Positions 16,562 through 45,753 of a DNA stretch of 58,281 nucleotides are shown in pieces. The stretch comes from a virus (Duplodnaviria > Heunggongvirae > Uroviricota > Caudoviricetes): positions 1 to 58,281 of the IMG/VR virus record IMGVR_UViG_3300012942_000032; one strand, 5' to 3'. Each line of letters starts with the position of its first letter. Positions within the stretch are counted from its first letter, which is position 1. The notes under the pieces are model-generated. The model saw only the letters and a program-made list of their open reading frames with translations, did not search any database and was not told where the DNA came from. Both the position numbers and the translations under genes were made by a program.

Positions 16562-18319
16562 TTAGTTCGAAGGCCAGAGACGGTTGCGAAGCTCGGCAAG
16601 CGTCTGAAGATTGCTAACCTCTCCATCCAGGAAGATTGTCTTCAGTTCACCTTCATTTGCTTGTTCTGGAGTCTGCTGCTGATACAGAACATATTCTCCA
16701 TTCTCTTTCTCGACGCGGAGCAAGCCCTTCGCCGAATGTTTCGTACCAGAGTCGGTAACCGGAGTCTTCTGCAAATCATGACCCTTACCGTCGATCTGAC
16801 CCCAGGTTGCTTTGACAGCAAGTCCGAAGGTGTCACGCGTCAGGTACTGGTAGGTGAAGCTTCCGACACCGAAGACGATGTTCGTACTTGCGAAACCGTT
16901 GTCCTTCATCAGCTGGAAGATCTGTTCGGCACGCTCCAGCGTAATGCTATCACCGTACACCAGACCAACATGCGGATCCAGGACACGATATCCTGCCTCG
17001 TTGATCGTACCACCGAACTGCTGCCACAGATGTTCCAGAGCACCTACTTCTTCAGGAAGGGGGTTGTAGTCCGAAACATAGATTCGACTATCATTCCAGC
17101 TAACCTGATCTTCGGGCACCTTCTTGGAGGAGTTGCCGTAATGCCCAGCCGGATAATGGATTTCGTGATAGCTGATGAACGTTCCATCTTTCGATGTGAG
17201 CTTGACTTTAGCGGTGTGCTCTTCGTCAAGCAAGACACCCCAGGTATGACCATCGAGCATCGGTGGATTGAAGTGCTTCATGAAGACTTTTTCGACCGAT
17301 TCTCTGAATCCTAGTTCATCCTCGAGAAGAACGAAGTCATTGTCGCCCGTGATGATCTTGACCGGATCGCCGGAATCGGGACGGAACACGACCTTGCCAG
17401 GACCGAAAGCATTTCCTTCGCGCTTCATGATATCATTGCGCAAGGAAGGAGCAACCTTCGTCAAAACGTCCCATAAGTTGATGGTATCCGACACAATAGC
17501 AACCATGCCGTCCGGATAGACTTCGTTCATCAGTCGGCGGTAGGTTTCGAGCTCGCCATAGACAGCATAGTTCAGACACATTACAGCATGCTCGGTTGCA
17601 GGCGGAGCAGTAAAGATCAGTTCCTTGTCCCACTTGGCGCCGTAATAATCGACCAGGTACTTGCCCGCTGCCAGCGTATCCGAACCCACCGACGAAAGCA
17701 GATGACCGGCACCGGAGCGCGCAGAATCTTCTGCTCCTGCCATACCACGTGCCGAGAAGTCATGATTCTGGAAGATCGAGAAACCTGCATCTGCACCCGT
17801 TTCCTTCGCAAAACGCTCCGATAGTCGACGGTATTCGTATGCGATGGTTGCAACGGTAAGCGGCTTCCAGGTGTAGTTGGCCCAGATCGTTTCCAAGAAG
17901 TTCACTAGCCAGCTGAAGCGTGTATCAGTGTTCTTGATCGTCATCAACGGAATGCGTAGATTGATTAGCTCACCTTCCGGAAGTGCCTTCACTTCCAACG
18001 GCAAATATCCCAGATTCCAAAGATCTACCAGATGAGATACGTTCACAACATTTGCGCCCAGCGCACTGTTAATCATATCCTGATATTCGCCGACAACCTC
18101 TTCACACGGACGATCGAAGAAATTTGTCTGCCAAAGATCACGGAGAATTTCTTGCACGAAACCACGAGCCCCGAAATTCACAACCTTTCCATTGAAATCC
18201 TTCCAGTGAAAATGAGCTGCACCACGAGCAGTCATATTGCTATAGACGTACTCGGTATTCGGCGGATACTGATAGAGATGACCAGTCTTGTAGGCATCTT
18301 TCAAAAACAACGGATTCAT
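16562..18319 (-). CDS. nadV: nicotinamide phosphoribosyltransferase-like (NadV/Namat)
   Basis: DAYKTGH..QYP, HDFSARG, PATEHAVM, IVSDT, FRPDSGDP, YGDSIT, FGVGSFTY, KHSAKGLL. Confidence 0.93.
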   Translation of the reverse strand: MNPLFLKDAYKTGHLYQYPPNTEYVYSNMTARGAAHFHWKDFNGKVVNFGARGFVQEILRDLWQTNFFDRPCEEVVGEYQDMINSALGANVVNVSHLVDLWNLGYLPLEVKALPEGELINLRIPLMTIKNTDTRFSWLVNFLETIWANYTWKPLTVATIAYEYRRLSERFAKETGADAGFSIFQNHDFSARGMAGAEDSARSGAGHLLSSVGSDTLAAGKYLVDYYGAKWDKELIFTAPPATEHAVMCLNYAVYGELETYRRLMNEVYPDGMVAIVSDTINLWDVLTKVAPSLRNDIMKREGNAFGPGKVVFRPDSGDPVKIITGDNDFVLLEDELGFRESVEKVFMKHFNPPMLDGHTWGVLLDEEHTAKVKLTSKDGTFISYHEIHYPAGHYGNSSKKVPEDQVSWNDSRIYVSDYNPLPEEVGALEHLWQQFGGTINEAGYRVLDPHVGLVYGDSITLERAEQIFQLMKDNGFASTNIVFGVGSFTYQYLTRDTFGLAVKATWGQIDGKGHDLQKTPVTDSGTKHSAKGLLRVEKENGEYVLYQQQTPEQANEGELKTIFLDGEVSNLQTLAELRNRLWPSN

Positions 18320-21271: not shown

Positions 21272-21631
21272 TCACCAATCGTATCTGAAGCTGCCGCATC
21301 CCGCTGCAATCACTTCTTCACGCCAAGTATTAAGGACGTCTTCTGAATAGGTACCTCTGTCTACAATACGATCCCACAGATCTTTGTACGATGAAGATTC
21401 CCTTCTCTCCATATAGAATTCGTCGTACAAAGTGCTTCCTGGTTCGAGGATGTCAATAAATCCATCGCCCCAATTGTCCGTAGGAAGATACTCATCTACA
21501 AGTTCAAATGCTTCCCATCGCTCGTTCAAAGGGCGAGTATTATCAGCGATAAACTTACGATATTGATCAATAAGATGATCTCGTAGATTTCCGATCTCAT
21601 TAACCAAACTATTGAAATACTCAATCGTCAT
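21272..21631 (-). CDS. hypothetical protein
   Basis: acidic; ends GCGSFRYDW. Confidence 0.7.
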   Translation of the reverse strand: MTIEYFNSLVNEIGNLRDHLIDQYRKFIADNTRPLNERWEAFELVDEYLPTDNWGDGFIDILEPGSTLYDEFYMERRESSSYKDLWDRIVDRGTYSEDVLNTWREEVIAAGCGSFRYDW

Positions 21632-22799
21632 TAGAATCTCCAAAATTGGAATTATACACACTTCTCAAATTGTATTCTTTTTCAAATCGATCAGACCACA
21701 TCTTCTTATAATCTAAATCTTTTCCGCGCATCTTGTTCATCAAAGTTCCGAAACTATATGGCAGAAGATCTTTTGCAACAAATGCCACCTTCGACCAATA
21801 TTCTCTAGAATTATCTTCTTCAATACCCGATTCACGTAGCAACCTACGGCACTCTGATTCTAGTTCATTCCATTGATCTATGATGCACTGAAGCTCTTTC
21901 AAAACCTTGCTTTCAATCTTTTCGATAATCGCAAGATCTAAACCTCGTTCGACTGCTGTGGATTTGATGTCATCGATGGTTTCGTCAATCACCATTTTTG
22001 CAACATCGCGTTCACGGAGATCTAACAAACGGTGTCGTGAAAGATACCATTTAGTCTTCAGTTTCACTCTTTGTCCGTTAGGAAGAATGATAACCCAACC
22101 TTCTAGATCTTCTTGGGTCTCTACCCATTCCTTCAAAAGACTCCATGAAGGATTCGAGTAATATTCACCTATCCAGGAAACGTCGAAGAAGAGTGACCAA
22201 GGATTCTCAAGAATTTCTTCATCAGCATAGACATATGATCCATCGCTGATAGTTCTGATTGCAAGCAAAGTGAATTGAGGCTCTTTGCCATAGTCAATCA
22301 CAATCTTTGAATCAGGTGACGTATATTCAAAGATTGGTGTATAACCTAGTTCAATGCAAATTTTACAAGAGTCGATAAATCCAGGAATCTTTTCTGCATC
22401 TCTCTGAGCTGCAATTGCTACGTCAGAATAGAAAGACTTCTTGGTCTTAAACCTGACTTCCCCATTACACAAGACAGGAGTAAGCATTGAACCATCGCGC
22501 TTCTCTTGGATTCGCACCCGTCCTGAATCAAAAAGCTTCTTGATCAGATGTTCTTGAGTGAATTCATTCTCATTCAGATTGAAGAATTTCTCAAAGGGAC
22601 GAGCAACGATGTCTCCATGTTCATTAAACACAATTCCACGACATTCAAATCCATTCTTGCGCTTCCAGATTTCAGGATCAGAAATCATGTAGGTGCAAAT
22701 AGTGAAATTCGCTCCATTTACTTCTTGAGTCTGAAATCTTACTGCAGAAAGATCGATGAAGGTATCACGAAGTTCATTTTCGTGGAATGCAGTGAACAT
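21621..22799 (-). CDS. rnlA: RNA ligase 1 (T4 Rnl1/gp63-like)
   Basis: ECRGIVF, FEKFFNLNE, EKRDGSM (KxDG), TPIFEYTSP, EGWV, KLKTKWY. Confidence 0.92.
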   Translation of the reverse strand: MFTAFHENELRDTFIDLSAVRFQTQEVNGANFTICTYMISDPEIWKRKNGFECRGIVFNEHGDIVARPFEKFFNLNENEFTQEHLIKKLFDSGRVRIQEKRDGSMLTPVLCNGEVRFKTKKSFYSDVAIAAQRDAEKIPGFIDSCKICIELGYTPIFEYTSPDSKIVIDYGKEPQFTLLAIRTISDGSYVYADEEILENPWSLFFDVSWIGEYYSNPSWSLLKEWVETQEDLEGWVIILPNGQRVKLKTKWYLSRHRLLDLRERDVAKMVIDETIDDIKSTAVERGLDLAIIEKIESKVLKELQCIIDQWNELESECRRLLRESGIEEDNSREYWSKVAFVAKDLLPYSFGTLMNKMRGKDLDYKKMWSDRFEKEYNLRSVYNSNFGDSNDD

Positions 22800-27204: not shown

Positions 27205-28302
27205 TTAGGCTTCCGCAAGTAGGTATTGCTTGCTGATACTCTTGAAAGACGGAACATTACCATCCTGCACGTCGAGGGACTTAAACACAAGACCTTCGCG
27301 TGCAGTTTCTGCGAGCTGTGATTGACCGTCAGCTTCATTGATGATATGCTCGATATCGACACCATCCAGCATCACACTTCCGATCACAGGCGCAGTTTTC
27401 ACTTCCAAGCCAGTCGATTCCATCAGCTGAATGAACAGCTGACGTTCAGGAAAGGCCATATAACGCTGGAAGTTACCAACGAACACGTCGAACACACGAA
27501 TCTCGGTTTCGGTCAGACCGTAGATGTTGCCCTGAATGTTCGGACCAATCAGCTCACCGCGGATAGCAATCATCGGCGGCTCTTCGGGCATAACTTCCTT
27601 GCCCATATCGTGGTATTGTTTCAGGAAGTCGAGAAAACCGCTCTTCTTTGCAGCATCGACGAAAGCATTGCCTTCCTGTTCCAGCTTCAGGTCCATGTTA
27701 CGCGAAGTAACGCCAACATCACCTTCACGGTTCACGTACAAGGTGATCGAAGAACCTTCCAACTTCTCCTCAACCACAAAGCCCGACTTGAAGTAACCAC
27801 GATTCTCGAAGCTGCGGTAGCAATTCTGGATGCGCTCTTGATCCGTCTTGGGAATCCAGTGCGGATAGTTGCCGCGAATCAGACCTGCCAGCGACGCATG
27901 GATCTTCGGTTCGTATTTGTATACGCCCAGAAGTTCGTCGAGTTGAGCATCTGCACCAACGGTCAGTTCAGCTTGGATATGTTCTTCCGTAATCTCGGGA
28001 AACTGACTGAGCGGAAGAGCGAGTCCTTGCGAAATCTGACCACGCAACTTTACGGTGCGAAGACGTGCGCCCAGACCCTTCTCGAACTGCTTGCCCTGCT
28101 TGTCGATCAGGAACTTGAACTGGGGAAGGTCCGGAAGAATCGAATCAATTTCGAAGAACACGCAAAGATCTCCGATCTTGAATTCACCCTTCTTCGACAC
28201 AACCTGCCAGCCATCGACATTCAAGACCTCGATAGCATCAGCATTGGGAATCGGATCAATTCGACCTACTTCACGAATTGTTACCAGCTTGCGCTCAGAC
28301 AT
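27205..28302 (-). CDS. RNA ligase, DRB0094/Rnl2-like family
   Basis: N-terminal OB-like PIPNADAIE..VDGWQVV..KG; KTDQERIQN; EKLEGSS; REGLVFK; SFKSIS. Confidence 0.92.
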   Translation of the reverse strand: MSERKLVTIREVGRIDPIPNADAIEVLNVDGWQVVSKKGEFKIGDLCVFFEIDSILPDLPQFKFLIDKQGKQFEKGLGARLRTVKLRGQISQGLALPLSQFPEITEEHIQAELTVGADAQLDELLGVYKYEPKIHASLAGLIRGNYPHWIPKTDQERIQNCYRSFENRGYFKSGFVVEEKLEGSSITLYVNREGDVGVTSRNMDLKLEQEGNAFVDAAKKSGFLDFLKQYHDMGKEVMPEEPPMIAIRGELIGPNIQGNIYGLTETEIRVFDVFVGNFQRYMAFPERQLFIQLMESTGLEVKTAPVIGSVMLDGVDIEHIINEADGQSQLAETAREGLVFKSLDVQDGNVPSFKSISKQYLLAEA

Positions 28303-28687
28303 CGTTGCCCACCTCAATTGCTTCAAGATCGTAGTAACCGGAATTATCATCTTTGATGGTGTCTTCCAATGCACTATTGATCTCGAAGATCTGATTATGC
28401 AGTTCGTTGAACCCTTCCGACTTGTTCTTGAACACCTGCAGTTCTTCTTCGCTCAAGCCAGCCATTTCCGCCATCTCAAGGAAGAACTCGAAGTTGGGCT
28501 TGGAACCCGAGATCTCGTCTAAAGCAACCGCTTTGCTAAGTGCAAGCCTCATCAGAAACAAGACACAGTTCAGATCAGAAGCAAAAACGCCTACAGGCAG
28601 ATCGTCCTTGATGGTCTCGAGATCGATGAAATCGTTCAATTCTTTCACGATAACGTCGAACGCACGAGCCTTGGTGTTAATATTCAT
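28295..28687 (-). CDS. acidic hypothetical protein
   Basis: ORF; paralog-like with the next gene. Confidence 0.65.
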   Translation of the reverse strand: MNINTKARAFDVIVKELNDFIDLETIKDDLPVGVFASDLNCVLFLMRLALSKAVALDEISGSKPNFEFFLEMAEMAGLSEEELQVFKNKSEGFNELHNQIFEINSALEDTIKDDNSGYYDLEAIEVGNDV

Positions 28688-31024: not shown

Positions 31025-31867
31025 TTAAACTCCAAACTTTAATGGACGAAATGGTGGTAGATGTGACGGACGTTCACCTGGATATCCCCTAGGATTGACA
31101 TGAACATTACATTCACCAATCTTATAACTAAACAGGTTATGGACGTGTCCGTGAATCCAATGCTTCAAGTTAGGGTGGTCAAGCATTAAGTCACTCAAAT
31201 CGCTCACGTAGTTCATGTTGCCGTATTTGTCATCTTTATACGATTCGTGGATACTAAGATGACTTGGACCATGATGCGTGAACACTACACAGATCTTGTC
31301 CTCGTGCTTCTTCAATTCTTTCTTGATGAAGTCGACAGCTTTGATGTGTAGCCCAATTGTAGTATCTACGCGAAGTTTTCTGTAGCCGTTTTTAGATTCC
31401 CTAATGACTTTATAATCGGCCATCAACATAGGAGCATGGTATTTCCCAATAGGATCACCTTTACCTATATCAGTCCACAGAGTCGTACCAATGAAGGCTA
31501 CATTGTTATAGACCAATGTTTCATTCTGAACAACATGAATATTGCCAAATACTTCAGTGGCAGCTCTTAGTTTATCTTCATCAGAAGGAAGAGCGCCGCT
31601 ATAGTATTCATGATTGCCAGGAACATACAGGACATGCGCAAAGTTTTCTGAACAATTCTTCCAGAACTCATATTGCTTATGAGCACGACGAGCCTCAATG
31701 ATATCACCTGCAAGGATCAAAACATCAGCAGGCGGATCGAAGAATTCCTGATTGATATCTCCGAAATCTAAATGAAGATCTGAAGCAAATGCAACCTGCA
31801 CAAATCCATTGCTCAATTGCCGCTTGTTATCTAGAACCACAGGAGGGAGAGCAGCAAGAGCCGTCAT
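31025..31867 (-). CDS. calcineurin-like metallophosphoesterase
   Basis: SDLHLDF, LAGDI, GNHEYY, THHGP, WIHGHVH, NPRGYP. Confidence 0.9.
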   Translation of the reverse strand: MTALAALPPVVLDNKRQLSNGFVQVAFASDLHLDFGDINQEFFDPPADVLILAGDIIEARRAHKQYEFWKNCSENFAHVLYVPGNHEYYSGALPSDEDKLRAATEVFGNIHVVQNETLVYNNVAFIGTTLWTDIGKGDPIGKYHAPMLMADYKVIRESKNGYRKLRVDTTIGLHIKAVDFIKKELKKHEDKICVVFTHHGPSHLSIHESYKDDKYGNMNYVSDLSDLMLDHPNLKHWIHGHVHNLFSYKIGECNVHVNPRGYPGERPSHLPPFRPLKFGV

Positions 31868-33567: not shown

Positions 33568-33642
33568 TGGAGCGGGATAGGAGAATCGAACTCCTTTACA
33601 TCTGCTTGGAAGGCAGTGGATCAACCAATGACCCAATCCCGC
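33568..33642 (-). tRNA. trnG: tRNA-Gly(TCC)
   Basis: loop CT-TCC-AA; U73; CCA. Confidence 0.93.
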
Positions 33643-34159
33643 GTTTTAACCTAATCGATTCTGCAATCTTTCGTTTATGCTCTTCTGATTTAGGTTTATT
33701 CTTTAACGCTCTACTTACCTTTTGACCTCTAACTTCATTAGTGCGCTTGTTAGCTTCTGAAATAAGCAACCTTGCTGCATCTGAAGTTTTATGACCTTTA
33801 TTCTTTTGACTGATCTTTAATTTAGTCTGATCAGTGTGTTTCTGTCCTTTGAATTTAACAATTCCAGTGTCATTGATAAAACTAAATCCACCTTCACCGC
33901 CGATCTTCAAATTGTAGGTATCTTTTCTAGATACAAATTCTTTGGTTACAATCTCTCTTTCCTTAGAGAACATCAATTCTTCGTTTTCGAAATATTCTAA
34001 TATCTGTTTATCAAAGTTTTCAAGACCATATTTGGAAATAGCATTCTTTAATAGCTTGCCAGATCCTATGTAATTATCATCAAGATTTTTGGTCTTGTGA
34101 ACGCCTACATAAATCTTTCCATTTATTCTGTTTGTAACTTGATACAAATAATAGAACAT
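33596..34159 (-). mobile_element. free-standing GIY-YIG homing endonuclease (Seg-like, NUMOD3)
   Basis: YYLYQVTN..NGKIYVGVH, Y.GSG; NUMOD3-like GQKHTDQTKLKIS; 3' end overlaps tRNA-Gly. Confidence 0.9.
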
Positions 34160-35327: not shown

Positions 35328-35966
35328 TTAGTTTACTACTCTACCTTTTCTAAAACCTTCTGGTAGATCATTAGTTTTAGATATCTTCTTTGAAATTGTA
35401 CCGTCAGTAATCCAAATTGTGCCGAATTGGGAATTTCCTACACCTTTTTGACTAGTAGCACTAATCTTGCCAATTTTAGATTTGAATTCCTCTGTATGGT
35501 GCTTTCCTAGAAAGCCATAAGAAGCTTTATGTACGAATTCACCTGATTCTATTTGACGATTCCTACTTTCGGAAATCTTCTTCATTGCTTTCTGTTTTAG
35601 ATCTGGATTTTCTAGATATTTCTTTTCTCTAGCATTAACCATACTCTTTGCATGAGAAGATGAATGAGTTAAATTGTCATCCATCGCATTCACAAAATCA
35701 AATCCACCCATGCCACCTGGCTTTAGATTATATGACATAGGATCTTTATGATCTACGAGATCTTTTTCCGTTTCGTACATCTCTTTTGATGATGCACATT
35801 CAACTAAAATTTCTCGATAAAATGAATCTTTGCCATATTTGGCGATTGCTCTTCTTAAGAGTTTTCCTGAACCTAAATAATCATCTTCGATATTTCGAGT
35901 CTTATGAGCGCCGATATAATAACGTCCATTTATCTTATTGATAGTTTTGTAGACCAAATAATACAT
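35328..35966 (-). mobile_element. free-standing GIY-YIG homing endonuclease (Seg-like)
   Basis: YYLVYKTINKINGRYYIGAH, YLGSG, NUMOD3 FLGKHHTEE, GTIWITDG. Confidence 0.9.
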
Positions 35967-36002: not shown

Positions 36003-36089
36003 CGGATAGCGTAGGATTCGAACCTACGGAGCCCTTTCGGGCTCGCCGAGTTAGCAACCCGGTGCCATAAACCACTCGACCAGCTATCC
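36003..36089 (-). tRNA. trnS: tRNA-Ser(GCT), CCA not encoded
   Basis: loop TT-GCT-AA; long variable arm; G73 followed by AAG. Confidence 0.9.
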
Positions 36090-36841: not shown

Positions 36842-36915
36842 TGGTGGGACTCCAGGGTATCGAACCCTATTCTACGGGTTAAAGGCCCGTTGCATCACCT
36901 TAATGCTTGAATCCC
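36842..36915 (-). tRNA. trnK: tRNA-Lys(TTT) with C33
   Basis: ACGGG-CCTTTAA-CCCGT; CCA. Confidence 0.88.
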
Positions 36916-37467
36916 GTTTTCATTTATTAGTTTGTAACATTTCGCATAATTAGCACCTTTGCCTGCTAATCCGCAACTTATTAGAGCTTTTCTTATTGAA
37001 GGTTCGCGCCTAAGGGCGGCAATTAATTCTTCATCAGATACAAAGGTTTTCTTTGCTTTATTTTTCAAATTTCTACCACGCCAAGTAGGAGTTTGTGCAT
37101 GGCAGTTAGGACAAAGAAGCTCTACATTATTTCTAGAATTATCATGATGATTTCCATCGATATGATCTAATTCTAATGGTATTTCTTTCTCATTCCATTC
37201 ATAAAGATTACAAACAGAACATCGCCCTTCTTGTTCTAAAAACAACCGTTTCTTAGTTAAGATGTCCTCAGCATGTCCTACTTTGAGTATAAAATACTCC
37301 CAAGGTAATTCTAATAATTCTGAAAAGTGTTCTTGTGTTTTTATCTTAGATCCCCGTGTTCTAGGAGATTCTAACAAATTCTGATTATCTTTACAATAAT
37401 ACTTCTCATGAGCAATTAAACCTGATCTAGTTTTGAACTCTCGTCTACAAAACTGACAAATTTCCAT
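36895..37467 (-). mobile_element. free-standing HNH homing endonuclease with an N-terminal zinc finger
   Basis: CQFC..F...GLIAHEKYYC; CSVC...LELDHIDGN..DN...N..LLCPNCH; 3' end overlaps tRNA-Lys. Confidence 0.9.
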
Positions 37468-37526: not shown

Positions 37527-37675
37527 CGGCGGCACATGCGGGACTTGAACCTTAGCTTCTGATGGCCATCATAGGCTATTTTACGCGACCTGCATCACAG
37601 TACATCATATTTGAATTTTGGTCGACCTTCCAAATACTTCACTCAATGCTACTCTACCAATTGAGCTAAAGTGCC
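37527..37675 (-). ncRNA. 149-nt tRNA-derived RNA with two hairpin insertions
   Basis: acceptor GGCACTT/ATGTGCC; D-arm GCTC-AATTGGTA-GAGT; anticodon stem GCATT/GATGC with a 48-nt loop; variable AGGTC; T-stem GCG[32nt]GG-TTCAAGT-CCCGC; ends GCCG. Confidence 0.8.
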
Positions 37676-37681
37676 ATTGTT

Positions 37682-37773
37682 TGGCGGAGACGGTGAGATT
37701 CGAACTCACGAGACCCTTTCGGGTCTGCCGGTTTTCAAGACCGGTGCAATAAACCAGGCTCTGCCACATCTCC
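37682..37773 (-). tRNA. trnS: tRNA-Ser(TGA)
   Basis: loop CT-TGA-AA; long variable arm; G73-CCA. Confidence 0.95.
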
Positions 37774-37780
37774 AAACTTT

Positions 37781-37895
37781 TCATGTCGCGCAAGCGCGGT
37801 CATGTTGTATAGCGCCGCCGAGGCCTAGATCTCCGGAAATCATCTTACCTTCATCCCCTAGGATACCTCAGTAAGTTTGTCACCTCGACTTCAGT
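37781..37895 (-). ncRNA. candidate structured RNA
   Basis: CTGAGG/CCTCGG, CCTAG/CTAGG, CGCG-CUUG-CGCG hairpin; GC-rich with no convincing ORF. Confidence 0.45.
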
Positions 37896-37905
37896 ATTTC
37901 AAAAT

Positions 37906-38099
37906 TGGACAAGAAAGGATTCGAACCTTTGCTGCGACAGCCTACCAGTGCTTGCCTTAATTTCAAATACTGCAAAACTCGCCCTTAGCTTTTCTCGAAA
38001 CACATCAACCCTAAGGGTAGCTGTCTCTAGCGCATTACCGGTCTTCAGCCCATGCTCGCTCAAACAATGCCGGCATTCTCTAGATTAGATGTATCGTTC
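37906..38099 (-). ncRNA. about 160-195-nt RNA ending in a T-arm and CCA
   Basis: AAAGG-TTCGAAT-CCTTT-CTTGT-CCA; GACAGCTAC/GTAGGCTGTC, CCCTTAG/CTAAGGG, GCAT/ATGC; 5' end uncertain. Confidence 0.65.
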
Positions 38100-38201: not shown

Positions 38202-38230
38202 ATTATACATTCAGAAAACGCATTGTCTAC
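38202..38230 (-). promoter_or_regulatory. sigma70 promoter heading the tRNA array
   Basis: TAGACA-16nt-TATAAT with extended TG. Confidence 0.7.
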
Positions 38231-39124: not shown

Positions 39125-40102
39125 TTATGCCAGCACCAAGTCCCTGTAAACTTCCAGCTTCTTGGCTTCGAGCGTGCCGTTGTAACTGTCCCAGAACTGA
39201 TGCGACTTGTTGCGGTTGCCAGTACCATGGGTGTAAACCTCGGTCGCACCACAGAGCGCGCCCCACTTGGTTCCCACCGACATTTCAGCACCAGAACCGC
39301 GCATCGCTGCCTGCATCAGCTTGTTGACTTCACGCACGACGCCCCAAGACTGCTCATCAGCCATCTTCGACTCGTCGTAGAGCATCTTCTGGTAGAAGCG
39401 ACGCGTATCAGCTTCAGCCATCGGAGTCTCTGCGAGCTTCTTGATGTTCTTCATGAAGCGATCCCATGCCTTGTCGATGATACCAAGATCAATCTTTACA
39501 GCACTCGGATCAAACTTCTTCTTGTGAGTAACCTTCACAACAGGCTTGCTCGAGATTCCGCTCAGAGCAATCGTCAAGGTGTTGTTGCAGACCACCCGCG
39601 TACTCACGAACTTCGCAGTGGTAGCCATCGAACCATCGACAGCAGTGACCAAGAGCAAGTGGCCCTTGATATGATCGCCATCGACAACATCATCTTCTCG
39701 TCCAGTTTCCGCCAGCGCCCAAAAACGCTTACCATCGTAAAGCGTACCTGCGGTGCTCAGCTTCATTCCATGGATCTGTACCAGGTCACGGAAAAACTCG
39801 ATAACTTCACGCGGCTGGACGATCTCGAAATTGCTACCGACGATGCTCAGAGCCTGTTCGTTATCAGAACGATACAAGATCTTGCGATCGGGGAAGGTAT
39901 GGAAAATGCTGTCATCCTTCTTGGATTCGAAGATAACATCGCCTTCCTGAACATTCCAGTCCATGCCTGCTGCAACAATCCAATCCTCGATTGAGGCGCC
40001 GTCTTGCAGATTGTTACCGAGACCATGCCAGATTGCGCTCCTCGGACCTGTGAAAGCCATCTCCACAAATCCATCTTCGCGCTGGGTCAACTCATGTGCC
40101 AT
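39125..40102 (-). CDS. DUF932 (phage/plasmid TIGR03299-type) protein
   Basis: MAHEL...WHGLG...AGMDWNV...YRSDN...FE.VQPRE...TAGTL..GKRFW.LA...TSVRVVCNNTL-like. Confidence 0.9.
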   Translation of the reverse strand: MAHELTQREDGFVEMAFTGPRSAIWHGLGNNLQDGASIEDWIVAAGMDWNVQEGDVIFESKKDDSIFHTFPDRKILYRSDNEQALSIVGSNFEIVQPREVIEFFRDLVQIHGMKLSTAGTLYDGKRFWALAETGREDDVVDGDHIKGHLLLVTAVDGSMATTAKFVSTRVVCNNTLTIALSGISSKPVVKVTHKKKFDPSAVKIDLGIIDKAWDRFMKNIKKLAETPMAEADTRRFYQKMLYDESKMADEQSWGVVREVNKLMQAAMRGSGAEMSVGTKWGALCGATEVYTHGTGNRNKSHQFWDSYNGTLEAKKLEVYRDLVLA

Positions 40103-40112
40103 GTGCTTCTCC

Positions 40113-40349
40113 TTAGTCGAGCAAAGACTGGAACTTGCCGGCAACACGTTCTGCGTGATCAGCTTCGATATGGTGAGCATCATGCTCCGCCATCAGCTGA
40201 GCTGCCTTGTCCTTCTTTTGCTGCGCATCACCCCGAAGGACCTGAGACAGATCGATCAGTTGCTTGCACTTCAATTCGATGTCACCAACGATCTGACTAA
40301 CGGTAGCGCGAACAGGAGCCAGCGTCGGTTCTTTCCTTCCAAAAAGCAT
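40113..40349 (-). CDS. coiled-coil hypothetical protein
   Basis: GAGG RBS; first gene after the promoter. Confidence 0.7.
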   Translation of the reverse strand: MLFGRKEPTLAPVRATVSQIVGDIELKCKQLIDLSQVLRGDAQQKKDKAAQLMAEHDAHHIEADHAERVAGKFQSLLD

Positions 40350-44530: not shown

Positions 44531-44866
44531 TTAGACTCTACCGTCTTGGTAGCGCTCTTTGAAACGATTGATCTTATATTCAATCTTCTGATGCAAAAGA
44601 AATGGATCAGCAAGACGAACTGCTTGATCTAGTAGCAAGATAACATCTGCAAGTTCTTCATGAAATTCTTCTCCACGTTCCTTGTCTCTGACATAGATCT
44701 TAATGATCTCTTTTGTCAGTTCAGACATCTCTTCTACTAGATGAAGATTTGCTTTAGCTTTCGAATGCTGCGGAGAATCAGGCCTAAGAGTATTGATCTC
44801 TGTGAGGCTAGAATATACGCTTCCGTGAGCCATTGGGGAAATGAGTGTCGCATAAAGACTGGCCAT
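44531..44866 (-). CDS. MazG-like pyrophosphohydrolase
   Basis: EEMSEL...EELADV motif. Confidence 0.7.
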   Translation of the reverse strand: MASLYATLISPMAHGSVYSSLTEINTLRPDSPQHSKAKANLHLVEEMSELTKEIIKIYVRDKERGEEFHEELADVILLLDQAVRLADPFLLHQKIEYKINRFKERYQDGRV

Positions 44867-45753
44867 TAAAATTCCTTGTAAGGATCAGCAACCTGAAGAA
44901 CATTCAGACCAATCTGACGCCACATACGGCAGACCTGAGGACGATCATCAATCACCATCTGGATACGAAACTTTCGAGGAACCATGTCTAACAGTTCACG
45001 CTTCACAATACTATCTTTTCTTTGATCTCCTTCTACTCTCATGAAAAGATAATATTGAAAATCAAAGAGTTCAGCCAACCAATTATTCGTTTTCTGTTTG
45101 CAACTTCCATCACGTCCAGAAAGGAAGATAATAGTCTTTCCAGCTTTGTGCAGACAACGAATAAGATCTACAACGTGTTGGATAGGCTTATCTTCATCAA
45201 CACGATCCCATTCAAACGGACCACGTTCTACCATTCTTGCAACAGTGCCATCAACATCGACGATCACAGCGTCTTCAGTGCCACTATTTTCAAACACCTT
45301 GAATTCAGGAAAGAGACGATTCCACTTCTCGAACTGGGTTGCAAGAACAGAGTAACTTACTCCATTGATGCGCTCTGCATTCCTAGAAATAGCTTCATCC
45401 CAAGTAATAGAAAAATACTTGAATTCAACGTCGTAACCATTCTTCACGAAAATACGACGAACATTCTCATAGTTAGAAACAGAAAGATTCGTGTCAGCAA
45501 GGATTACATCACATCCCTTCTCAAGAGCATATTCGACGTCCAGATCACGAAGCTTATCGACTTCAGGCTCCCACTTCCATTTCCAATCTTTCCACTTGAA
45601 ATCATTCCTGCCCTGGGACTTCTTATATGCCAGCACCGACTTCCTGTAATCATCACGACAGATGATAATCGTATTAGGATTTTCCAGGATGTGCTTTTCT
45701 GCCCAAGTTGTCTTGCCAGAGCCAGAGACTCCGATGGTAATGTAAAGCTTCAT
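44866..45753 (-). CDS. pseT: polynucleotide kinase / 3'-phosphatase (PseT)
   Basis: GVSGSGKTT, RDDYR, DVDGT (HAD), LSGR, DDRPQV. Confidence 0.95.
   Translation of the reverse strand: MKLYITIGVSGSGKTTWAEKHILENPNTIIICRDDYRKSVLAYKKSQGRNDFKWKDWKWKWEPEVDKLRDLDVEYALEKGCDVILADTNLSVSNYENVRRIFVKNGYDVEFKYFSITWDEAISRNAERINGVSYSVLATQFEKWNRLFPEFKVFENSGTEDAVIVDVDGTVARMVERGPFEWDRVDEDKPIQHVVDLIRCLHKAGKTIIFLSGRDGSCKQKTNNWLAELFDFQYYLFMRVEGDQRKDSIVKRELLDMVPRKFRIQMVIDDRPQVCRMWRQIGLNVLQVADPYKEF

Follow-up and report, generated by a model that had tools for sequence, protein, structure and literature searches.

The window analysed here comprises 58,281 nucleotides of an IMG/VR virus record from soil (IMGVR_UViG_3300012942_000032) and corresponds to the first 58 kb of that 156.7-kb record, which is ~87% complete. 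The phage belongs to the T4-like myoviruses; it has a family B polymerase, and its portal, terminase, sheath, gp5 and gp6 are of the T4 type. On the minus strand of the window lies a tRNA-derived RNA gene of 149 nt that is interrupted twice, by an insert of 48 nt that replaces the anticodon loop and by a second insert of 32 nt that splits the T stem. From 5' to 3', its first half reads GGCACUU-UA-GCUC-AAUUGGUA-GAGU-A-GCAUU-(48 nt)-GAUGC and its second half AGGUC-GCG-(32 nt)-GG-UUCAAGU-CCCGC-AUGUGCC-G-CCG. The parts of the element are as follows, in coordinates of the window:

37675..37527, minus strand: the entire tRNA-derived RNA gene, 149 nt
37669..37675, minus strand: acceptor stem 5' strand GGCACUU (partner AUGUGCC at 37531-37537; U6:U67 mismatch)
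37651..37666, minus strand: D arm GCUC-AAUUGGUA-GAGU with A14, G18G19 and A21, almost invariant across the homologues described below
37645..37649, minus strand: anticodon-stem 5' strand GCAUU (partner GAUGC at 37592-37596)
37597..37644, minus strand: anticodon-region insert, 48 nt, replacing the anticodon loop
37638..37641, minus strand: UGAA, the only motif common to the 5' strand of the anticodon insert across lineages
37587..37591, minus strand: variable loop AGGUC, invariant among homologues
37584..37586, minus strand: first part of the T-stem 5' strand, GCG (49-51), pairing with CGC at 37538-37540; invariant
37552..37583, minus strand: T-stem insert, 32 nt, between T-stem positions 51 and 52
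37564..37567, minus strand: GGCC tetraloop with a U-A closing pair (UGGCCA), invariant among homologues
37538..37551, minus strand: remainder of the T arm, with GG (52-53), T loop UUCAAGU and 3' strand CCCGC
37527..37537, minus strand: acceptor 3' strand AUGUGCC, discriminator G73 (invariant) and CCG

The positions that build a tRNA core (U8, A14, G18G19, A21, G46, the T loop and G53-C61) are all retained, and a 7-bp acceptor stem, a D arm with G18G19, a T loop of the form UUCRANY and a 5-bp T stem are present if the T stem is read across its insert. In the anticodon-region insert, a 7-nt 5' strand (GAGUGAA) leads into an 8-bp hairpin (GUAUUUGG/UCAAAUAU) with a 15-nt loop (AAGGUCGACCAAAAU), and a 10-nt 3' strand follows; the T-stem insert is laid out as UAAAAU / AGC / CUA / UGAU-GGCC-AUCA / GAA / GCU / AA. 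The original prediction, made from the letters of the window, had described a tRNA of 149 nt interrupted in this way, with a 48-nt anticodon "loop" containing a UAUUUG/CAAAUA hairpin, a U6:U67 mismatch and a CCG end, all of which are present in the sequence. Its T-stem hairpin was correct in the UAGC/GCUA and UGAU(GGCC)AUCA helices, but the fifth pair (G:C) that it had added to the latter would leave a loop of 2 nt, and four base pairs closed by a GGCC tetraloop are more realistic.

The native element escapes tRNA finders: ARAGORN made no call on it with or without intron mode, calling 21 other tRNAs on the same strand of the window, and 37527-37675 had no match to Rfam RF00005 at E<=10. Without the T insert the T arm GCGGG-UUCAAGU-CCCGC is restored, as had been predicted, and after in-silico deletion of this insert ARAGORN recognises a tRNA whose anticodon loop holds an intron of 41 nt. 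The subtraction 149-32-41=76, by which the element had been equated with a 76-nt cloverleaf, is arithmetically sound, but the boundaries of the 41 nt are arbitrary, each choice yielding a cloverleaf with a different anticodon: eight possible splits in the window give four anticodons (ACU, GCU, GUU and GUG), and U33 occurs only with ACU. The full cloverleaf with both arms folds at -34.0 kcal/mol, 3 kcal/mol above the minimum free energy (MFE) fold of -37.1 kcal/mol.

The architecture recurs in two further lineages. The closer one (L118) was reached through homologues of the neighbouring DUF932 protein, which led to a Logan contig with the same gene order and a DUF932 protein 88% identical to that of the window. 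The other lineage was found by a two-gap pattern scan of metagenome contigs and is represented by two contigs (L128 and L140) of another T4-like phage, which encodes topoisomerase II subunits. The homologues are:

L118:12675-12833: 159 nt, directly after tRNA-Ser(UGA)
L128:263-405: 143 nt
L140:9632-9774: 143 nt, 1 nt different from the L128 copy

Thus there are four sequences in three lineages from independent metagenomes, in all of which the two inserts occupy the same positions. The window and L118 copies end in CCG, those of L128 and L140 in CCA. The L118 copy has 14 extra nucleotides between the T stem and the acceptor strand (L118:12804-12817, ACCCCGC twice), which are either a tolerated slippage or an artefact of the assembly of the Logan contig. 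In L140 the element follows the genes of tRNA-Ser(GGA), tRNA-Thr(GGU) and tRNA-Gly(GCC), and lies 6 nt from the last of them, the same spacing as in the window; downstream of it comes a hairpin with a T run that resembles a terminator.

A structural alignment was made by hand in a script, because the MAFFT alignments (A1-A3) misplace the anticodon stem and the 3' end of L118, and the counts were taken from a model-fitted alignment of the three lineages (A4). Standard pairs fill 97.3% of the pair cells, and 14 of the 28 modelled pairs have changed on both sides, with such changes at 6 of 7 pairs in the acceptor stem, 4 of 5 in the anticodon stem (all cells of which are paired in the homologues) and 4 of 7 in the helices of the T insert. 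None of 500 shuffles reached the observed pairing values, and sliding the partners by 1-3 columns left 34-46% paired. The hairpin of the anticodon insert pairs in each lineage with unrelated sequences (GUAUUUGG/UCAAAUAU, UAAUAGAU/AUCUAUUA and CUCAUG/CAUGAG). G.U pairs are confined to the tRNA-sense strand, which indicates selection at the RNA level. The direction of this comparative evidence is unambiguous: the fold of this structured RNA, including its arms, has been kept by selection. The homologue search and covariation analysis that had been proposed as a check of the original prediction thus find the insert hairpins and their positions conserved, with no random decay.

Conservation is distributed unevenly along the element. 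The split T stem (GCG|GG / CCCGC), the variable loop AGGUC and G73 are invariant, and the T loop is UUCRAGU in all copies, with the canonical U54, U55, C56 and A58. The T-stem arm has the same 32-nt length and layout throughout: between Y-AAAAU on the 5' side and AA on the 3' side, helices of 3 and 4 bp are separated by a purine-rich internal loop of 3x3 nt (NNA / RRA), and the 4-bp helix is capped by the GGCC loop. Eighteen of its 32 nucleotides are invariant, nearly all of them unpaired (YAAAAU, the GGCC tetraloop and AA), and its 3-bp and 4-bp helices covary, including one strand-specific G.U pair. Identity between lineages is 62-78% in the T insert, equal to that of the tRNA body, and 17-58% in the acceptor and anticodon stems. 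With its fixed length and layout and its invariant unpaired nucleotides, the T insert shows the pattern expected of a functional module rather than of filler. The anticodon arm is looser, with a 7-nt 5' strand, a hairpin of 6-8 bp, a loop of 13-15 nt (AGG, a GC-rich palindrome and CC, then A/U-rich nucleotides) and a 3' strand of 8-10 nt; the distance of UGAA from the stem falls from 3 nt in the window to 2 nt in L118 and 1 nt in L128. No canonical 7-nt anticodon loop with U33 and a shared anticodon is found, the loops being 48, 44 and 42 nt long in the three lineages.

The family can be defined by a covariance model (R1) as a tRNA core with an arm replacing the anticodon loop and a 32-nt arm at 51/52 containing YAAAAU...UGGCCA...AA. 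The window scores 141.8 bits, L118 156.6 bits and L128/L140 162 bits, and ordinary tRNAs score at most 43 bits. Searches beyond these lineages were negative. Exact and degenerate pattern scans of IMG/VR detected no family member (one scan gave unrelated phage tRNAs with anticodon inserts), and among protein relatives in IMG/VR the HNH neighbour of the element had only distant HNH genes and the portal nothing above 55% identity. A blastn search of 50,697 records of cultured phages with the three homologues matched only generic 5' halves of tRNAs; Acidovorax phage ACP17, Variovorax phage V45v66, Xanthomonas phage BUDD and Stenotrophomonas phage Mendera, examined by BLAST and model R1, have only ordinary tRNAs. 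Of the pattern scans of GTDB genomes, one had no hits and the other 63, all attributable to chance and outside any tRNA context, and more distant DUF932-linked contigs (L119-L125) have no such element within 10 kb. The family is missing from Rfam and from the IMG/VR, GTDB and cultured phage genomes searched. No second copy of either insert exists in the window or the 156.7-kb genome, and a miniature inverted-repeat transposable element (MITE) or repetitive extragenic palindrome (REP) as the origin of the inserts was dropped for want of repeat copies there.

Other assignments of the element were tried. Self-splicing group I and II introns have a conserved catalytic core of at least 200 nt; the inserts are 32 and ~41 nt, and no Rfam intron or ribozyme family matched at E<=10. 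ARAGORN called no transfer-messenger RNA in the window, and 149 nt leaves no space for its pseudoknots and tag. A hammerhead-like reading of the T insert was rejected in that CUGAUGA/GAAA is not conserved and has no Rfam match, and reading the T insert as a class II long variable arm would leave just 2 of 5 T-stem pairs. A kissing interaction between the GGCC loop and the loop of the anticodon arm was also abandoned, the complementarity not being kept in L118.

The surroundings of the element in the window include tRNA genes, homing-endonuclease genes and genes of RNA repair:

38202..38229, minus strand: promoter-like site TAGACA-16-TATAAT (11/12), from a consensus scan only, ahead of tRNA-Tyr
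37682..37773, minus strand: tRNA-Ser(UGA), 6 nt upstream of the element, identified by ARAGORN and Rfam; also precedes the L118 homologue
36895..37467, minus strand: HNH homing-endonuclease gene (PHROG HNH families, E=1e-32), 60 nt downstream of the element
35328-35966 and 33596-34159, minus strand: GIY-YIG free-standing homing-endonuclease genes, scattered in the tRNA array
21621-22799: RNA ligase Rnl1
27205-28350: Rnl2-like RNA ligase
44866-45753: polynucleotide kinase PNKP

The phage portal shares 59% identity with its counterpart in Acidovorax phage ACP17 and 53-57% with the portals of phages of Xanthomonas, Variovorax and Stenotrophomonas; these four genera are the hosts of its relatives. 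The genome encodes 24 ordinary tRNAs covering all 20 amino acids, including tRNA-Thr(UGU) and tRNA-Phe(GAA); with this full set elsewhere in the genome, the gene of the element is dispensable for decoding. By blastn, tRNA-Ser and the first 24-28 nt of the element resemble the Ser-Thr gene pair of T4-like and other phages, and the probable ancestor of the element is the tRNA-Thr located behind tRNA-Ser in T4-type arrays. The promoter-like site at 38202..38229 is likely, judging from its motif, to be the start of the transcript that carries the element. CCA is encoded in 20 of the 21 other tRNAs of the window, usually followed by AAUU, which also follows the element. The sole exception among the 21 is tRNA-Ser(GCU) (36003-36089, minus strand); the host must therefore add CCA, and the CCG end would handicap the element less on that account. 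The HNH gene is missing beside the homologues in L118 and L140 and was accordingly dropped as a partner of the element; its absence from the close relative L118 is as expected of a mobile gene.

Further features were observed near the element and elsewhere in the genome. A GC-rich hairpin (CAUGACCGCGCUUGCGCGACAUG) lies immediately upstream of tRNA-Ser(UGA) at 37780-37830 (minus strand); the blastn alignment to L118 starts within it (37819), and it seems to be conserved together with the Ser gene and the element. Between tRNA-Tyr and tRNA-Ser, 230 nt upstream of the element, is a tRNA-like stretch (37906-37984, minus strand). Its acceptor stem (GGGCGAG/CUUGUCC) pairs well and carries CCA, and its T arm (AAAGG-UUCGAAU-CCUUU) is canonical, but the D loop lacks GG and the anticodon region is irregular; it scores 24.1 bits against the Rfam tRNA model (threshold 29) and has no counterpart in L118 by blastn. 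The DUF932 protein (39125-40183, minus strand) has nearly 2,000 metagenomic homologues, including one (P0003) that is 78% identical, and is a good marker for relatives of this phage group. P0003 lies on a 162-kb Joint Genome Institute contig (sample 3300067032), in which ~1 kb free of genes is found where the element would be expected. No homologue of orf99 was found by a word-index search. The window also encodes a NAMPT-like nicotinamide phosphoribosyltransferase (16562-18319, minus strand) and a calcineurin-like phosphoesterase (31025-31867, minus strand). In intron mode ARAGORN calls a "tRNA-Leu" with a 90-nt intron outside the window (G000 136477-136659, plus strand) and another with a 118-nt intron in L140 (L140:13414-13624, minus strand); both may be false positives.

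The element is very probably a functional RNA rather than a relic. The reading that we favour, holding it to be about an even chance, is that both arms are retained in the mature RNA and that it serves as a non-decoding, tRNA-like small RNA, and the enlarged tRNA mimic of the original prediction is in this sense its best-supported suggestion. Retention is favoured because the most conserved nucleotides of the inserts are unpaired and the arms are as constrained as the tRNA body, and also because features that would handicap a tRNA are tolerated: the CCG end, U6:U67, the 14 nt of L118 and the shifting UGAA. Placement in a tRNA operon, with 6-nt spacers, the promoter-like site in the window and the terminator-like site in L140, supports the same reading, for which RNAC of phage T4, compared below, is a precedent. 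Expression and the retention of the arms are what we infer from the sequence, its conservation and covariation, and this placement.

The tRNA body would provide for excision from a polycistronic tRNA transcript, with RNase P cutting the 5' end and the 3' end being trimmed and its CCA repaired, and would stabilize the RNA or dock it to a tRNA-binding partner. An arm of ~35-48 nt would take the place of the anticodon loop, and the 32-nt arm leaving the T stem at 51/52 would create a three-way junction. EF-Tu contacts the T stem where an arm at 51/52 would sit; with such an arm and no 7-nt anticodon loop, the unspliced RNA should not act as an elongator tRNA. The functional surfaces would be the conserved single-stranded nucleotides of the arms: YAAAAU, the GGCC tetraloop, AA, the purine-rich 3x3 loop, UGAA and the AGG..CC loop. 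The partner could be a host or phage protein, such as a tRNA-directed nuclease or another tRNA-binding enzyme, for which the RNA might be a decoy or inhibitor; a decoy for a tRNA-directed defence nuclease is an attractive, speculative sub-case.

Several observations weigh against the retention of both arms in a non-decoding RNA. With only three lineages the covariation counts are statistically thin, and alignment A4 was itself fitted to the structure. The hairpins are only marginally more stable than mononucleotide shuffles (48-mer, -8.0 kcal/mol and p=0.15; 32-mer, -5.7 kcal/mol and p=0.045). The 14 nt of L118 would disturb stacking of the acceptor and T stems and could reflect relaxed constraint there. 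The genes flanking the element include no conserved partner protein, and a search of sequencing runs returned only the source soil DNA run and one run with 7% of the sampled words, with no RNA run holding the element. The strict conservation of the split T stem, and UGAA if taken as U33 plus GAA, fit a spliced tRNA equally well.

Splicing, one of the readings offered in the original prediction, is an unlikely alternative to the non-decoding RNA, though it has several observations in its favour. According to it, the element is a doubly interrupted pre-tRNA from which a host or phage nuclease cuts both arms; PNKP would heal the ends, Rnl1 would seal the break in the anticodon loop and the Rnl2-like ligase the nick in the T stem, giving a tRNA of ~76 nt, possibly with anticodon GAA. 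Removal of the inserts leaves a valid cloverleaf in all three lineages, and the exon helices are maintained through compensatory changes. UGAA and the purine after it can be read as U33-G34-A35-A36-R37 of a Phe-type loop, N-U-GAA-R-N, the insert then lying behind position 38. In L128 a canonical anticodon loop is formed by the seven nucleotides next to the stem, GUGAAAA; ARAGORN gives GAA for L118 and, in one run, L128, and under this reading the anticodon insert becomes 35, 35 and 37 nt long. On the other hand, GAA requires anticodon stems of 7, 6 and 5 pairs (window, L118 and L128), the ARAGORN anticodons disagree after removal of the T insert (ACU in the window, GAA in L118, GUA or GAA in L128), G73 is unfit for Phe identity, which in E. 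coli tRNA-Phe involves A73, and the phage already has a tRNA-Phe(GAA). The two RNA ligases and the polynucleotide kinase that had been noted are indeed encoded in the window as Rnl1, the Rnl2-like ligase and PNKP. T4 Rnl1 with Pnkp acts on broken anticodon loops and T4 Rnl2 on nicks in duplex RNA, and by analogy these preferences would suit the two insert sites; however, Rnl1 and PNKP are also found in Xanthomonas phage BUDD and Stenotrophomonas phage Mendera, both of which lack the element, so that these enzymes are not specific to it. There is no support for splicing of the archaeal type. The 156.7-kb record, ~87% complete and with no host genome identified for it, contains no match to EndA (PF01974) at E<=0.1, in a search whose controls matched in four archaea, and no RtcB. 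Neither insert has a conserved bulge-helix-bulge (BHB) motif: at the T insert it is impossible, as the central helix would need AAAA to pair with AGCU; at the anticodon insert L128 has 3 of 4 central pairs (two of them wobble) with an extra nucleotide and L118 has 2 of 4; and the MFE fold of the window copy has 1x2 and 2x4 internal loops in place of the bulges. Short introns have been reported in phage tRNAs (10.1101/356790), and other phage contigs have inserts of 40-60 nt in the anticodon region, but the invariance of the insert loops is unexplained if the inserts are discarded, and the CCG end, U6:U67 and the extra 14 nt of L118 would handicap a decoding tRNA. The specific supports for a protein-spliced tRNA fail in that a conserved BHB, EndA, RtcB and a common anticodon are lacking and Rnl1 and PNKP are non-specific. 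Were this doubtful scheme nevertheless true, the long-known "RNA repair" enzymes would gain a constitutive splicing substrate, and no tRNA splicing that depends on proteins would have been described earlier from the bacterial world.

The remaining two explanations, which deny the RNA a role, are each very improbable. The original prediction had allowed for a decaying pseudogene, and a dead copy of tRNA-Thr beside a homing endonuclease, with functionless inserts as scars of repair, would account for U6:U67, A15:C48 and CCG in place of CCA in the window copy, for the HNH gene 60 nt downstream, the GIY-YIG genes across the array and the second degenerate tRNA-like stretch (24 bits) 230 nt upstream, and for a tRNA set that is complete without the element. 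It is refuted by inserts that keep the same position, length, layout and hairpins in three diverged lineages, with 14 of 28 pairs doubly compensated, 97% of cells paired, and insert loops that are invariant although the sequences of the stems have been replaced; L118 has the same CCG end, no HNH gene lies beside the homologues, and the recent transfer of one dead copy is excluded by stem identities of 17-58% with pairing kept. An element acting at the DNA level, in which the palindromes TGATGGCCATCA and GGTCGACC would be binding or cleavage sites of a dimeric DNA protein, or protection against a homing endonuclease, and RNA structure would be incidental, is no more credible. Every lineage has a perfect palindrome at the tip of each arm (TGATGGCCATCA / GGATGGCCATCC / GGGTGGCCACCC and GGTCGACC / GGGCGCCC / GGGCCC), and homing endonucleases are abundant in the array. 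Yet chance alone predicts ~38 palindromes of 12 nt in 157 kb, the neighbourhood of the element has no conserved endonuclease gene, the 3x3 internal loop is conserved but non-palindromic (CUA/GAA, GGA/AAA, CGA/AGA), the G.U pairs of the helices are mismatches in DNA and C.A on the opposite strand, and the tRNA helices beyond the palindromes covary as well.

The literature searched contains no description of such an element, but the view of the original prediction that nothing comparable had been described in phage was too strong, given the RNAC and RNAD of T4 and the tRNA introns of Lak phages; what stands is that an insert splitting the T stem was not found in anything searched. Like the element, RNAC (species 1, 139 nt) and RNAD (species 2, 119 nt) are small RNAs larger than tRNAs, encoded on the tRNA strand of a T4-type tRNA cluster; they are stable and of unknown function (PMC3014915; PMC9697503). 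RNAC resembles the element in its canonical T arm (CCGGG-UUCGAAU-CCCGG), acceptor-like stem and large extra hairpins, but has no recognisable D arm or anticodon stem, whereas the element keeps the full cloverleaf core with its arms at defined tRNA positions. No homology of the element to rnaC or rnaD is detectable: model R1 matches only true tRNAs in the T4 locus (L115).

Lak megaphage tRNAs contain short "enigmatic" introns (Devoto et al., 10.1101/356790 / PMC6784885), which resemble the element in being short, conserved inserts of the anticodon region, too small for group I or II introns. Inserts of the Lak type differ in that they are single and usually stand beside an intact 7-nt anticodon loop, and none splits a T stem. 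Inserts of 45-60 nt by an intact-looking 7-nt anticodon loop were also observed in L133:8918-9052 (minus strand; = L146) and L141:2951-3082 (minus strand; = L153), which show compensatory changes between them in the acceptor stem and insert hairpin; further phage tRNAs of this form are L003:3003-3123 (plus strand; = L005) and L007:2272-2403 (plus strand), the sources being marine metagenomes and IMG/VR. Model R1 gives these single-insert tRNAs 33-43 bits, the level of ordinary tRNAs. Short inserts in phage tRNAs thus look commoner than the literature suggests.

Archaeal and eukaryal tRNA introns are short, sometimes multiple or at non-canonical sites (the T arm in some archaea), and their exons fold to a cloverleaf. 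Such BHB introns, processed by EndA/TSEN and RtcB or Trl1, differ from the element in that they do not need conserved insert-loop sequences, and the host of the element is bacterial. YrlA (RF02553) is, like the element, a non-coding RNA that mimics the tRNA elbow, and it is tied to RNA repair genes in some bacteria and phages; it is circularly permuted, its ends lying in the Ro-binding stem, whereas the element has a normal acceptor end. The element scores 15.7 bits against RF02553 (gathering score 69), partly over the neighbouring tRNA-Ser, and no Ro60/TROVE gene is present in the 156.7-kb record. In the engineered "tRNA scaffold", a foreign RNA is inserted into a tRNA at its anticodon stem so that it can be expressed stably in bacteria; the tRNA body confers processing and resistance to nucleases, and the function resides in the inserted arm. 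If the arms are retained, the element would follow the same design principle, differing in that it is natural and has two arms, one of them in the T stem. The element belongs with the tRNA-derived small RNAs and interrupted tRNAs of phage arrays, among which its T-stem-splitting insert is unprecedented.

Phage tRNA arrays are now viewed as counter-measures to host defences that cut tRNA (for example PMC10264068, PMC11555353, PMC13096335). The RNAs of such arrays that are not tRNAs, for example RNAC and RNAD of T4, have been without an assigned function for 50 years, and the element offers a clean, conserved case with a readable design, a complete tRNA core and two arms with invariant loops. 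Whatever becomes of the arms, it represents an RNA family that is missing from Rfam and skipped by tRNA finders. With its arms retained, the element would be an RNA that nature has built on a tRNA scaffold, and some tRNA-directed enzyme might be decoyed or inhibited by it; if the arms are removed, it would reveal protein-dependent tRNA splicing in a bacterial system.

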